Shown piece after piece: positions 49,414-62,713 of a stretch of 64,000 bases of DNA. Source of the DNA: Aplysia californica (lineage: Eukaryota); contig NW_004797538.1 of the NCBI RefSeq assembly GCF_000002075.1, positions 692,299 through 756,298 on the forward strand. Reading direction: 5' to 3'. The position numbers and the translations under genes were made by a program. The notes beneath the pieces are model-generated. The model made no database searches, was not told the DNA's origin, and saw nothing but the letters and a program-made list of their open reading frames with translations. Within the stretch, counting starts at the first letter, position 1. Every line of letters starts with the position of its first letter.

Positions 49414-49515
49414 TCAAACAGCGAGGTCAGCGGTAGGTGAGAGTTGGACATCTCGTGCCCAGTCACGCTGGAGGTAAAAACACCATGATTGAGGTACGGC
49501 AGACAGCCAGCCAAG
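49414..49515 (-). CDS. Candidate distal alternative last exon of the minus-strand gene (phase 0 gives LGWLSAVPQSWCFYLQRDWARDVQLSPTADLAV*)
   Basis: Strong acceptor gttcttgttgttgctgttgttgcAG at 49517-49516. Reading frame is inferred from the phase-0 donor at 56209; it could instead be a UTR exon. Confidence 0.35.
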   Translation of the reverse strand, partial: LGWLSAVPQSWCFYLQRDWARDVQLSPTADLAV

Positions 49516-50224
49516 CTGCAACAACAGCAACAACAAGAACAACATATGCTCAGCCTGAAAATGTCACAGCCAATCTCGTAATAACCAAAGAATGAGCAAA
49601 CGTATTATGCAGGCACATATACATATTTATATGCAAGTGCGCACATACGTAATCCAACATGAGCACCGAGCTTATACGGTGTCTACATCAACATTTGTGA
49701 GGTGAAAACAGCTGCTGCAGCACAATTATAGAACTGATCCTTTCTCAGAATTCGATAGAAGGCCACACAGCCCTTTCCTTCACCGCACTCTTCCTCAGCA
49801 TCCCGAAGAGCTGCCTTTGTCTTACTCTCAAACAGGAAGACAAAATACACACAGGAAGCGGAGACTCAAAGGAGGCCAAACCCTCATTCCCTCATGAATT
49901 CAAAGTAGGTGGAGGAGCATTAAAAGCCCTTATTCTTCACACTTGAACAGAAAGCCCCCTCTCCCACTTTGAACGGACAAACCAAATCTTTCCTCTCCTC
50001 CATATTGCACAAAAATCTCTTGCTCAAACCCTGCTGCCTGCCCCTTCCACATCGGGTCAACAATCCTGCCTGCAACAGACGAGCCACCCCTCCCAAATCA
50101 GATTGGCGACACCTCTCAAACAAATCTTCCCACGTCCGACCAAAGGCTTGACACCTCAAATAAGACCAAAGACTTCCTAAATCATACCAGGGATCATATT
50201 GGAGACTCGGAGACTCCTCCCACA

Positions 50225-50520
50225 TCATATCGGAGATTTCTCCCACATCATACAAGAGACTCCTTCCATATCATATAAGAGACTCCTCCCACATCATATA
50301 AGAGACTCCTCCCACATCATATAAGAGACTCCTCCCACATCATATAAGAGACTCCTCCCATATCATATAAGAGACTCCTCCCACATCATATAAGAGACTC
50401 CTCCCACATCATACAAGAGACTCTTCCCACATCATATAAGAGACTCCTTCCACATCATATAAGAGACTCCTCCCCCATCATATAAGAGACTCCTCCTACA
50501 TCATACAAGAGACTCCTCCC
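50225..50520 (-). repeat. 23-bp tandem array (13 units) derived from the terminal codons and stop of the 51718-50501 exon
   Basis: Unit TCATA(T/C)AAGAGACTCCTCCCACA starting at 50225, 50248, ... 50478, 50501. Confidence 0.95.
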
Positions 50521-51718
50521 CTTCCTCCCAATCATCATCCGTGTCCTCATTGAAACAAAGCGGTTTCTTGTCTCCAGCCCCGCGATGTCGCGTCAGAGAC
50601 GAGGCGCCGACGGCTTTGTGCTGAGCACCGTGGCTCTGGCCGGGCGACTGTGGCTGGGGTCTGTGCTGGGGGGACGGCTGATGTCGATGAGCGTACGGCT
50701 GGGCGGGGTGGGGAGTGGGTTGGGAGTGGTACAGCTGTGCAGGAGGGGCTTTCACAGGAGTGGAGGGGTAGGAAGAGGAGGAGGAGGGGGAGGAGTGTAG
50801 CCGGTCCATGGCACTCTGGTTCTGCCTGGCCATCTCAGTCTGCACGTACAGCAACAGCTTTTCTTTCAAATCCAAGGCGGAGGTGGACTCCTTGGCCTTC
50901 TCTTGTTGACCCAACGGGAACAAGCCGAGACTTGCCAGGTCGAGGTCAAGGTCTCGCTGTGAGAACGCCAAAGTCTGAGGGGGGGCAGCTGCTGAGGTCC
51001 GGGGAATGCCGTGGCTGCTGCTGCTGCTATTCAGGGAGGACTGTTGTTGATGCTGCTGCTGTTGCCTCTGGTGCTGCTGCAGCATCTGCTGGTGGTGGTA
51101 CTGGTGCTGCTGGAGCTGATGCAGCTGGTGAATCTCTTCCAGGGAGTGCTGCTGGTACGGACTGGGCTGTGAGGACTGAGGAGGGAGGCGTGGGGCGACC
51201 GTCGTCACAGACGCCATAGTCAACTGTGAGTTCTGTCGGCCATGGGGAGGGGTGAGCCGCAACTGCTGCTGCTGCTGTAGCTGCCATCTCATCTGCTGCT
51301 GTTGCTGAAACTGCTGCTGCTGAATGCAGTCGCTGTTCACTCGCCAGCTGAGCTCTCCCTCTGTGGTCGCGGGCTGGTCTAGTCTGTTGGGCAAAGACTT
51401 GTGTCGGAGGATCGGGCTGATGCGCTGGTGGGCAGGGAGGGTTGGGGCCGCGAGCCCGTCGCTGCTCAGGGTGACCTCTGCCAGGTCGGAGCTTGGGGAA
51501 CTGTCCAGACTGGGGAACACCAGGCTGTCCTGGCTGAGGGAGATGTGTGGCTGGGGCAGCAGTGGCTGCTGGGCGGAATGCTGCTGCTGCTGTTGTTGTT
51601 GTTGCTGTTGTTGGCTGATGATGGTGGTGGTGGTGGTGATGGATGGAGGAGTAAAGGGCTGGCCATCTGCCTCTGATCTCTCACTACGACCGTTGGTGAA
51701 ACGAACTCGCTTCTCGTA
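50501..51718 (-). CDS. Large terminal coding exon (405 aa, Q/H/P/S-rich, ends EEGEESLV*) of an unidentified gene whose 5' part lies beyond the window
   Basis: Acceptor cctctgtccccAG at 51720-51719. Open frame from YEKRVRFTNGRS... through ...LKEKLLLYVQTEMAR... to DDDWEEGEESLV*, GC-rich coding-like composition, class I PDZ-ligand C-terminus. Confidence 0.75.
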   Translation of the reverse strand, partial: YEKRVRFTNGRSERSEADGQPFTPPSITTTTTIISQQQQQQQQQQQHSAQQPLLPQPHISLSQDSLVFPSLDSSPSSDLAEVTLSSDGLAAPTLPAHQRISPILRHKSLPNRLDQPATTEGELSWRVNSDCIQQQQFQQQQQMRWQLQQQQQLRLTPPHGRQNSQLTMASVTTVAPRLPPQSSQPSPYQQHSLEEIHQLHQLQQHQYHHQQMLQQHQRQQQQHQQQSSLNSSSSSHGIPRTSAAAPPQTLAFSQRDLDLDLASLGLFPLGQQEKAKESTSALDLKEKLLLYVQTEMARQNQSAMDRLHSSPSSSSSYPSTPVKAPPAQLYHSQPTPHPAQPYAHRHQPSPQHRPQPQSPGQSHGAQHKAVGASSLTRHRGAGDKKPLCFNEDTDDDWEEGEESLV

Positions 51719-60001: not shown

Positions 60002-60534
60002 CTAGACATCGGACTCGAATGACTCAGGATTCACAGAGCCCAGGCGAAGGAGCATTGGAGTGTGTGGGTTGTTAGGGCTGCTGACCTGGGGAGGGCTCGA
60101 GGTGGTGGGTTGCACTACCTGACCGACCGCTTGACTGGAGTTTGAACCCCTCTTGCTGCGGTGGTGGTGGTGGTGGTGGTGGTGGTTCGAGTTGGATGAG
60201 TTTTTGTGGTGGTTGTTGTTGCTAATAGGGTGTGATGATGATGTTGATGATGATGCCGCTGATGAGGCTGAGGAGTTTGTGGTGGTGGGTGGAGGTGCAT
60301 ATGTGATGACTCGCTCTTGTAGTTGTGGGTGAGAATGAAGTGGCGGTGGTAGCGGGTGGTGGTTGTGGTGGTCTTGGAAGAAATGTGGCTGGTGTGCAGG
60401 GGGCTTCTGGTGAAAGTGGTAGCGTTTGTGGTGGAAGTGTTGTTGTTGTTGTTGATGGTAATGTTGTTGTTGTTGTTGCTGTAGTTGCTGGTGATGATGA
60501 TCACTGCTGCTTGAATAGGCCTGGTCCTCCACTG
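60002..60534 (-). CDS. Alternative terminal exon of the minus-strand gene (His/Gln/Ser-rich, ends VNPESFESDV*)
   Basis: NAGNAG acceptor tgtgtcAG|cAG after a long AG-free stretch, phase 1, about 177 open codons, class I PDZ-ligand ESDV before TAG. Confidence 0.65.
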
Positions 60535-62689
60535 CTGACACAGCGTTGCGCATGTGCAAATGTAAATGTATATGTATATGTATATGTATGTGTATGTGAG
60601 GTCGGGGAGGAGGGGGGTTGGAAAAACAAAAACAAAGCGCCGATGAAACAAACACACACACACACACAAAAAATCAACCAAAAAAAAAATTTGTTTCTTC
60701 ATTTGAGTAAAGAGAAGCACATCAACACAAAAAAGGTCATTTAGTGCTGGGAAAAAGCAAGACAGACACACAGGCAGACAAAAACAACAGAGGGAAAGTA
60801 AAGAAGCAGGACCTACCAGTGGCACCCTCCAACCACCCACAAGAAAACAAAGATCCAAACGAAATGAGTCACAACATGGTGGAATCAGGCGCTCTTCAAT
60901 TTTTGGCATTGTGGAGTTGTTGATATCATCTGAAAGTTTATTCATTTGACTTACTTTCAATTCTGAAAAATCCATCTAGCTTGAATAGAAGCAGAGATAT
61001 TTGTCATTGAAGAAAGTGGGGTAGCCTGGTTTCTGTGGTTAAATTAATGAGAAAATGGCCCCCAAAGTCTGGTAACATCAATGGCTTAAGAGTCCTTGAA
61101 AAATGAAAATTACATATTTTGTGCCTTTAAATAGTGTTTTTCAGTAAAATTCAAATGGAAATGACATTTCATATGAACATAAAAGGTGTTTAGCCAAAAA
61201 ACGAAATTTCAATAAAAATCGCCAAACTGGTGGAAAAATGCCTTTTTCTTTGATTTCATTGTTTTGACGAGCGCCTGATTTCACCACGATGCCTCACAAA
61301 TAACAAACAAACGAAATGATTAAGGATTAACATCTTCAGCTACAACGGAGTATGCCTACTCATTCATCACATCAACATTCAACATGCAAGGAAGAAAAGT
61401 CAACCAGACATCAAGTCAGCGTAGAAAAGAATGTATCAAGTTATCTCTGTAAACTCAAAGCAAATACCCCCCCCCCCCCCAAAAAAAAGAATGACACATT
61501 AACAAAAGGACACATCGAAAAGAGACAAATTAACAAAAAGACTCATAAAAAAGAGATACATTGACAAAAAGGACACATCAAAAAGTGACACATTGACAAA
61601 AGGACACATCAACAACATCAGGTGCTGGGCTAATCTCTCTCTTTTTGGGGGGCGAGAACGAGAAGATCCCACACACACACATACACACAAATTAATACAT
61701 ACAAGCTCCACTCAACCAAGTATACAAAGACATGATGTAGTCCCACACACACACACACACACACACATACGCACACACACACAAACACACACCAACCACT
61801 AATGCACATACATCAACCACTTACACATATACACCAACCAAAATACACACACACACGCACGTGCCCACCCACATGCGCGTGCGCACACACACCAAACATA
61901 CACACACACCAACCCACCCACCCACACACACACAAATGGACAAACCCACATAAACATCCAGAACTCACACACAGACAAACATGCAAAAAATCACGTACCC
62001 ACTCTCTTAAGTTTCTTTAGTTTTTGTAATAGTTTTACGGCACTTGCAACACAATAAGGTTATATAAGAGCCGAAGATTAGAGGTGTTACAAGAGAGTAA
62101 CAAACACAAAAAAGACGGAGGGGAGATAAAGACAAAAGATGTTTGATAGGAAATAAGCGAACCACACCAGAGCACCTGCCAACCACCCACCTATTCTGAT
62201 CAAACACGTGAACAAACATCCCATGAAAGGCACAAGGCGGGGTGTATTGACAACACACGAGTCACAAAACAAAGAAGATGAAATACATAAAGGAAAAAAA
62301 AATAATGAAGATACCAAGGAGTGAACTATGATGTTCCTACGACACAATCAGTGCACTTCTAGAAACATCCAAAAAGGATGCATGTGAGTGTGAGAGAGGA
62401 AGAGGGTTGGGGGGGGGGGGGGGCGCAAAGGAGAGGGCACACAATAACAATCAGAACACAGGGCTACAGGAGGAAAATGGCATCCAAATCTGAACACAAG
62501 TGTGTCAGTTTAGCTACAATCTACATATAAAAGGACAGCGCACGCACCACACACACACACATATACATATTACAGGAATACGAAAACTAAGGTACACACA
62601 GTGAGAAAGTCGGTGAGAAGAGGTGGAGTGAGGTGAGGGGGGGAACAGTCTACACCGGTCAAAAAGATGTCACAGCTAAGATCACTTAC

Positions 62690-62713
62690 ACAGATTCCTG
62701 AACACCTTGAAAT
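62690..62713 (-). CDS. Candidate 24-nt microexon ((x)FKVFRNL) of the minus-strand gene
   Basis: Long pyrimidine tract upstream on the minus strand (62740-62870), acceptor ttcaAG, donor GTAAGT at 62689-62684. Phase 1-1 fits both downstream exons. Confidence 0.4.

Follow-up and report, generated by a model that had tools for sequence, protein, structure and literature searches.

Two long open frames on the minus strand of a stretch of Aplysia californica DNA are best read, with a probability of about 0.58, as alternative last exons within one gene, a class I PDZ-type ending being predicted for both products. The frames, A and C, lie 9.5 kb apart in a 64,000-nt window (GCF_000002075.1, NW_004797538.1:692,299–756,298, forward strand), within which all features are numbered. 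The candidate exons, labelled A, B, C, D, E and M, are all on the minus strand (Table 1). The class I PDZ-binding motif is given as a C-terminal x-S/T-x-V/L (PMC9317961); the S-D-V* ending of A and the S-L-V* ending of C both follow this pattern.

Splice sites were ranked among the 1970 GT and 1376 AG sites of 40–64 kb with approximate weight matrices. Openness of frames was judged against 1000 dinucleotide shuffles, and endings and motifs against 20,000 residue shuffles. The background for endings was a set of 1332 ORFs of at least 30 aa from both strands of the window.

Table 1 Candidate exons and associated features, numbered within the window
Feature	Position	Strand	Description
A	60002..60534	minus	Candidate proximal last exon; 176-aa tail, ends FESDV*
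B	56210..56253	minus	Predicted internal exon; 44 nt, AG..GTGAGT; TSPGEDSTTPTADQ when entered in phase 1
C	50501..51718	minus	Candidate distal last exon; Gln-rich, disordered-type tail of 405 aa, phase 0, ends EESLV*
D	49414..49515	minus	33-codon frame, ends DLAV*
E	54052..54068	minus	Possible cassette; 17 nt; after B reads SEC*, truncating the tail
M	62690..62713	minus	Possible symmetric microexon, weak candidate; 24 nt; reads FKVFRNL with phase-1 entry
Minisatellite	50210..50520	minus	23-bp unit, 13.5 copies
Poly(A) hexamers	58878..58887	minus	Overlapping ATTAAA/AATAAA, first past the A stop

Frames, phases and candidate bridging exons

The motif E-S/T-x-V, picked post hoc after inspection of the data, ends 3 of the 1332 window ORFs, and two of these three are A and C; a looser class I ending is found in 67. 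The two frames rank first and third in length among the minus-strand stop-free frames of 40–62.7 kb, the second being another frame over A. A is entered in phase 1, B is entered in phase 1 and exits in phase 0, and C is entered in phase 0. Acceptor, own stop and frame thus fit a common upstream donor, an agreement of phases that amounts to a coincidence of about 1 in 3. On the minus strand, T exceeds A in 22 of 24 1-kb bins across 40–64 kb, a skew owed in part to oriented interspersed repeats, and the two exceptions lie over frames A and C. This skew fits one long transcription unit.

B is a GC island (0.67) with the best donor of all 1970 GT sites and an acceptor ranked 93rd of 1376. Because B is also open when entered in phase 0, its frame is taken from the fit to A and C, and it is likely to serve as the bridge to C. 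A search with the B region listed 17 protein candidates, of which not one reached an E value of 10 or lower, a 14-residue match being weak evidence. Further upstream, M is open in all three phases, with a GTAAGT donor ranked 93rd of 1970 and an acceptor ranked 306th of 1376. The possible cassette E had been missed by the first-pass annotation. Its donor, at 54051, scores 8.2 (second of 1970) and is used by the public model P0002, and its acceptor-plus-donor sum is the highest among the eight internal candidates listed; E adjoins a local degenerate repeat and so may be a chance feature.

The first-pass annotation had described the phase scheme and the FESDV* and EESLV* endings, all of which are seen in the sequence, and had added DLAV as a possible further PDZ tail, with a ligand kept by every isoform. 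Its frames, phases and class I endings hold for A and C, and a predicted ligand is kept in these two. D ends in L-A-V*, with Leu at −2, and was rejected as a class I tail. The D frame stayed open in 382 of 1000 shuffles, its FoldIndex is +0.24, its acceptor ranks 50th of 1376, and 137 of the 1332 window ORFs close with a class II-like motif of the LAV kind. D is likely to be a chance frame or a minor acceptor inside the 3′ UTR of C, and is probably not part of the tail design.

Evidence for each tail and competing readings

Two public models and the sequence statistics support C as a coding exon. No dinucleotide shuffle of 1000 kept the frame open (3 when any frame is counted), GC3 is 0.72 against 0.62–0.67 for three other coding stretches in the window, and the acceptor ranks 12th of 1376. 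The first model, P0001 (XP_035826330.1, likely from Aplysia californica), matches C at 344 of 346 residues; P0002 consists of a four-residue start followed by C and uses the same C acceptor. RefSeq names P0001 a putative cyclin-dependent kinase. We dropped this identity, as a Pfam search of C with an E limit of 0.1 returned 0 families, and the name likely reflects low-complexity similarity. A search of 1.84 billion representatives brought up no relatives of C outside the cluster to which it belongs, residues 235–405 had no match against proteins of 710–2025 aa, and the best Atlas match (0.79) is at lead level only. Residues 3–7, KRVRF, are PP1-docking-like and fit the strict RVxF pattern, which arose anywhere in 42 of 20,000 shuffles of C (1175 for a looser pattern). 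The acidic DDWE at residues 395–398 arose in 26 and the E-S/T-x-V ending in 4. The next hexamers past the C stop are at 45293 and below.

Both public models are two-exon stand-alone genes that join C to donors other than that of B, and C might be a separate small gene, as RefSeq has it, with A (with or without B) ending another gene upstream and no exchange between A and C. The donor at 54051, second best of 1970, and several AATAAA hexamers between B and C (56639, 53512 and 52590–52619) agree with this arrangement. However, the models add only 4–6 residues before C and conflict on the first exon (MLDK versus MFKSIL), as would be expected if C were an orphaned last exon; the product yielded neither a Pfam family nor relatives beyond its own cluster; and B, with the best donor of the region, requires a phase-0 acceptor downstream, which C provides. 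We consider a separate C unlikely.

The A tail is of the disordered type (FoldIndex −0.21; Q+H+P+S 58%), rich in His, Gln, Ser and Pro, and includes a tract of His and Gln as well as KRGS, a kinase-like site. It is open for 176 codons, its stop ending at 60002, behind a tandem pair of phase-1 AG acceptors (60534 and 60531). These acceptors are weak (ranks 482 and 421 of 1376), and 82 of 1000 shuffles kept the frame open. No match to A was found in a protein search against proteins of 308–2000 aa, nothing exceeded the Pfam cut-off, the Atlas gave no usable match, and an exact protein look-up with A started at its own ATG found none.

A may be an intronic trinucleotide-rich stretch or a rare cryptic last exon that ends in ESDV* by chance, leaving B–C as the sole coding end. 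The acceptor ranks favour such a reading, as do some open frame over A in 223 of 1000 shuffles and the absence of A from every protein search run. Against it stand a GC content of 0.53, compared with about 0.39 in the surroundings, a GC3 of 0.56, an E-S/T-x-V ending that arose in just 6 of 20,000 residue shuffles, and the hexamer pair (58887 and 58883) 1.1 kb downstream, from which a 3′ UTR of about 1.1 kb is predicted. We consider this reading unlikely.

The end of C is embedded in a minisatellite, which the first-pass annotation had missed. Unit 1 encodes the ESLV and stop of C; across the first 12 units, ESLV* is read in 3 and ESLI* in 9, and the array repeats an ESLV-type ending plus stop across all three reading frames. 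The ESLV of C could thus be an accident of the repeat. The unit is absent elsewhere in the window with up to 4 mismatches allowed, and the C codons DDDWEE, just before the array, already resemble it; both observations fit a scheme in which the exon end seeded the array. A minisatellite that encodes a predicted ligand is a curiosity, and could reveal how PDZ-type motifs arise.

The least probable of the competing readings takes A and C as genuine low-complexity tails that belong to some non-membrane protein, with the RRM-type XP_005101079 as an example, and treats the PDZ-like endings as incidental, ESLV having been donated by the minisatellite. Gln/His tails are common among RNA-binding proteins, XP_005101079 comes next after nocturnin by accession, its listed oyster BLAST match EKC37903 falls in the PABP orthogroup and ESLV* is a repeat unit. 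Against this reading, the ESDV* of A is outside any repeat, a pair of these endings separated by 9.5 kb is improbable when the background rate is 1 in 1330, and the unit, which occurs in the window only at the end of C and has a likeness in DDDWEE, fits an array seeded there.

Proposed tail switch and host gene

If A and C are alternative last exons, the window would stop short of the folded domains of the gene, which would be found past its right edge. Either M or an exon outside the window would supply a phase-1 donor, which would join A and lead to a poly(A) site near 58.9 kb. Alternatively, A would be skipped, the same phase of donor would join B, and the shift to phase 0 would lead into C. 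Both products would keep a predicted C-terminal ligand for Dlg/PSD-95/MAGI-type scaffolds and would differ in their disordered cargo: the C tail would bring the PP1-docking-like KRVRF and the acidic DDWE, and the A tail its His/Gln tract and KRGS site. The 17-nt E may yield a third, tailless form (SEC*). Every junction, as well as expression, tissue and PDZ binding, is a prediction.

Protein searches returned no homologue, from libraries that are weak for disordered mollusc tails. The two matches among PDB sequences (E 1.8 and 4.9) are at chance level, none of 595 and none of 617 pattern matches in metagenome scans was confirmed, and exact protein look-ups returned 0 of 2 and 0 of 5, with H1 of the window among the queries. 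The literature searched held none of six window peptide motifs, no ESDV in a mollusc PDZ context, no P0001 accession prefix and no neighbour accessions; the supplements of PMC9282427 and PMC9829102 gave no matches.

The host gene was sought by accession order. Since H1 of the window had no exact look-up match, this map rests on family names. The named neighbours are Nwk/FCHSD, an RRM-type protein, PRRT3/4 and Kidins220. The accession of Aplysia Nwk (XP_012939475.2) is close to the accession of a gene that has, in Biomphalaria, an orthologue numbered beside nocturnin, and the Biomphalaria FCHSD2 orthologue has 7 protein models among the matches listed. XP_005101079, directly after nocturnin, is RRM/PABP-like by its listed BLAST hit, which counts against Nwk. 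For Kidins220, the Aplysia orthologue (XP_005101087.2) and nocturnin are separated by roughly ten accession numbers. XP_035826330 is absent among the matches listed in the orthogroup file. By this order, Nwk/FCHSD2 and a curated or otherwise unnumbered gene are equally tentative candidates; the RRM-type XP_005101079 and some other gene are both doubtful, and Kidins220 is more doubtful still. The composite picture is likewise doubtful: a synaptic membrane-remodelling protein, with Nervous wreck/FCHSD2 as the best lead, that exchanges a His-rich ESDV tail for a PP1-docking, DDWE-bearing Gln-rich ESLV tail, with a 17-nt tailless form and a minisatellite-borne ligand and stop.

The first-pass annotation had named a channel, receptor or signalling protein; we find a channel or receptor no more likely than a scaffold or adaptor. 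Nav1 of molluscs is reported to end in SGVVA (PMC6259924), and Aplysia Cav2 ends in DDWC (PMC10657410). Frames A, C and D have neither ending, and 0 of 5 window motifs occurred in the PMC10657410 supplement. Both channels, Nav1 and Cav2, are unlikely hosts and were set aside.

Were the alternative-last-exon reading true, the annotation would be wrong here in a major model of synaptic plasticity, what is named a ‘putative kinase’ would prove to be a last exon orphaned from the gene next to it, and a second tail (A), absent from the protein searches made here, would be missing from the annotation. The exon map supplies RT-PCR targets for a possible neuronal switch between two tails predicted to bind scaffolds, of which one has a likely docking site for a phosphatase.

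Relation to known alternative tails

The last four residues of A and C are like those of well-known membrane proteins. GluN2A and GluN2B end in ESDV. Nav1.4 and Nav1.5 end in R/K-E-S-L/I-V (PMC6259924). A match of four residues does not fix a family, and no GluN2 link was found in the literature searched. Human FCHSD2, an F-BAR/SH3 protein, has a C-terminal type I motif, ITLV, and binds PDZD7 through it (PMC9317961). FCHSD2/Nervous wreck would thus have a type I PDZ-binding C terminus in common with A and C, although the endings differ; no F-BAR or SH3 sequence was found in the candidate exons of the window.

The locus is likely to be a mis-annotated case of a known design, in which alternative last exons carry PDZ tails. 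Because this design is known from PCDH15 and Kidins220, the case is useful to the specialist more than it is surprising. In PCDH15 (bioRxiv 10.64898/2026.09.17.752191), CD1, CD2 and CD3 are alternatively spliced, predicted-disordered C-terminal domains past a common region. The likeness is one of design only; the PCDH15 tails are acidic polyampholytes, whereas those of A and C are Gln/His-rich. In Kidins220/ARMS, choice between terminal exons 32 and 33 alters a long tail with kinesin-binding and PDZ-binding motifs (PMC4470590). There, the alternative exon drops the ligand, whereas here A and C would both keep one.

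Candidate exons and their reading phases

Six-frame translation of the minus strand, read over 32-64 kb of the window, placed the five elements claimed or implied by the first-pass annotation exactly where it had put them: a candidate microexon (M), a likely proximal last exon (A), a probable internal exon (B), a likely distal last exon (C) and a short frame past it (D). Its phase arithmetic also held, with A entered in phase 1, B entered in phase 1 and left in phase 0, and C and D requiring phase 0. Because B is also open with phase-0 entry and M is open in all three phases, this phase fit of A, B and C is worth about 1 in 3. 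We propose, with a probability of about 0.58, a single gene whose transcripts would end either proximally at A, served by a separate poly(A) site, or distally at C by way of B. Both products would retain a class I ligand but differ in the disordered tail and in the short motifs it carries. By anatomy (acceptors, stops and phases), A and C would classify as alternative last exons, all junctions among M, A, B, C, D and the candidate cassette E being predictions from sequence. E, which adjoins a degenerate local repeat, would end the frame as SEC* if spliced after B. The peptide PTAD is common to B and the end of D (49414-49467, minus strand) in differing synonymous codons, possibly by chance or as a decayed duplicate.

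Candidate exons and other features of the window
Feature	Position	Strand	Details
M	62713-62690	minus	24 nt
A	start at 60534 or 60531	minus	176 codons, ends FESDV*
B	56253-56210	minus	44 nt
E	54068-54052	minus	17 nt; donor second-best
C	51718-50501	minus	405 aa, ends EESLV*
D	49515-49414	minus	33 aa, ends DLAV*
Exo_endo_phos (EEP) frame	23549-24415	plus	289 codons, stop-free; Pfam E 9e-18
Linker histone H1	13614-14189	plus	intronless; Pfam E 6.5e-29
Hydrophobic frame, likely multi-pass membrane protein	5331-6170	plus	280 codons; no Pfam family
Other minisatellites	35146-35836, 36847-37246, 52160-52433		units 42, 37, 43 bp
Two assembly gaps	near 28.8 kb and 31.3 kb		337 N total

Public protein models of the probable distal exon

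Among 1.84 billion representative proteins, C matched solely XP_035826330.1 (P0001), which shares 344 of the 346 aligned residues with it; both differences lie at the spliced start of the model. Its name, putative cyclin-dependent kinase, was rejected, as Pfam gives no domain behind it. P0002, from the same cluster, consists of MLDK followed by the whole of C, and joins the donor of E to the acceptor named for C in the first-pass annotation; P0001 pairs a donor near 52481 with an acceptor at 51533. By these donors, acceptors and starts, the two models agree that C is coding, differ on its start and set it as a separate gene, a reading we consider unlikely. On the minus strand, T exceeds A in 22 of 24 1-kb bins (40-64 kb), a pattern consistent with a long transcript in which the 3' UTR of C would contain D; oriented repeats add to this skew. 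An interspersed repeat family has at least seven copies in one orientation at 43.5-62.1 kb (43540-62200); near 39.4 kb, close to the sign change of the skew, a copy lies inverted. A and B had no match in any protein search run.

Coding signal, tails and endings

The frame of C exceeds chance: 0 of 1000 dinucleotide shuffles left it open, and GC3 stands at 0.72 in C versus 0.62-0.67 in three other coding stretches of the window. By approximate weight matrices, its acceptor ranks 12 of 1376 AG sites and the donor of B ranks 1 of 1970 (40-64 kb). A is less secure as a coding exon: its frame was open in 82 of 1000 shuffles and its acceptors rank 421 and 482. That A is non-coding or cryptic seems improbable; it has 53% GC, and a pair of poly(A) hexamers follows its stop at a distance of 1.1 kb. 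FoldIndex scored both long tails as disordered (A, -0.21; C, -0.09; nocturnin control, +0.12).

The endings of A and C are the strongest signal above chance: E-S/T-x-V, a motif chosen post hoc, ends 3 of 1332 ORFs of at least 30 aa, two of them A and C, and a looser class I pattern ends 67. A fourth ORF, ending E-S-x-I, is the 23-bp minisatellite at the end of C in another frame; class II-like endings occur on 137 of 1332. The tails of A and C match the class I ligand pattern. DLAV*, suggested earlier as a possible PDZ tail, drops out, as D has Leu at -2, was open in 382 of 1000 shuffles and is not disordered by prediction.

A 23-bp minisatellite of 13.5 copies (50210-50520, minus strand) supplies, in its first unit, the ESLV and stop of C. 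ESLV* occurs in three of the first 12 units and ESLI* in nine. As each 23-bp unit shifts the reading frame, ESL(V/I)* falls in all three frames over successive units. The unit has no second location within the window and is similar to the DDDWEE codons that come before it, from which we read the array as seeded at the exon end. The ESLV ligand is possibly an accident of the array; that the tails are real and both PDZ-like endings incidental is the reading to which we give least credence. A 45-codon alternative frame across the end of C also terminates EESLI*.

C starts with KRVRF, a strict match to the RVxF PP1-docking consensus; the strict pattern arose at any position in 42 of 20000 shuffles and the loose one in 1175. 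Near the end of C, DDWE (26 of 20000) is similar to the acidic-tryptophan motifs that engage Arp2/3 or kinesin light chain. Like the array and E, these two motifs are absent from the first-pass annotation. Matches resembling 14-3-3 sites are as frequent as chance would give (6328 of 20000).

Neighbouring genes, candidate hosts and known systems

The EEP frame probably represents the large final exon of nocturnin, a name in line with the orthogroup tables. No histone gene besides H1 was seen in the window, and the 42-bp array generates spurious long ORFs. The hydrophobic frame is possibly XP_012939472.1, a guess from accession order; that model is unannotated, in the 'pink' module of PMC8195618.

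In the rows listed from the PMC9334734 orthogroup tables, XP_035826328 and 331-335 fall in the Aplysia californica AplCal3.0 column and XP_035826330 is absent; since only its neighbouring numbers are listed, its assignment to A. californica is likely. H1 (XP_005101076) and nocturnin (XP_005101077/78) are consecutive in those rows, just as the window carries H1 followed by the EEP exon that resembles nocturnin. The window H1 had no match in an exact look-up, so the link to the accessions is by family name. Accession order, in these rows, is roughly positional only: the 0358 series has the SPATA5 model after C, yet the older number of that model precedes nocturnin.

Near numbers include XP_012939475.2 (Nwk/FCHSD1/2, with seven Biomphalaria models listed; PMC9334734), XP_005101079.2 (a listed BLAST match in a PABP orthogroup, PMC8195618 supplement row), XP_005101081 (PRRT3/4) and XP_005101087.2 (Kidins220). 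Nwk, a candidate by accession order, is attractive as host because the human FCHSD2 C-terminus is a type I motif (PMC9317961); against it, XP_005101079 is the first accession after nocturnin in the rows listed. Another possible host is a curated gene that bears no number of this kind. Cav2 and Nav1 are unlikely hosts, ending in DDWC (PMC10657410) and SGVVA (PMC6259924), respectively.

The open-licence literature searched, including the portions covered of PMC9282427 and its supplement, gave no description of the locus. The locus would operate in the manner of the CD1-3 tails of PCDH15 (bioRxiv 10.64898/2026.09.17.752191) and of the terminal-exon splicing of Kidins220 (PMC4470590). It is likely a new, mis-annotated case of an already known design.
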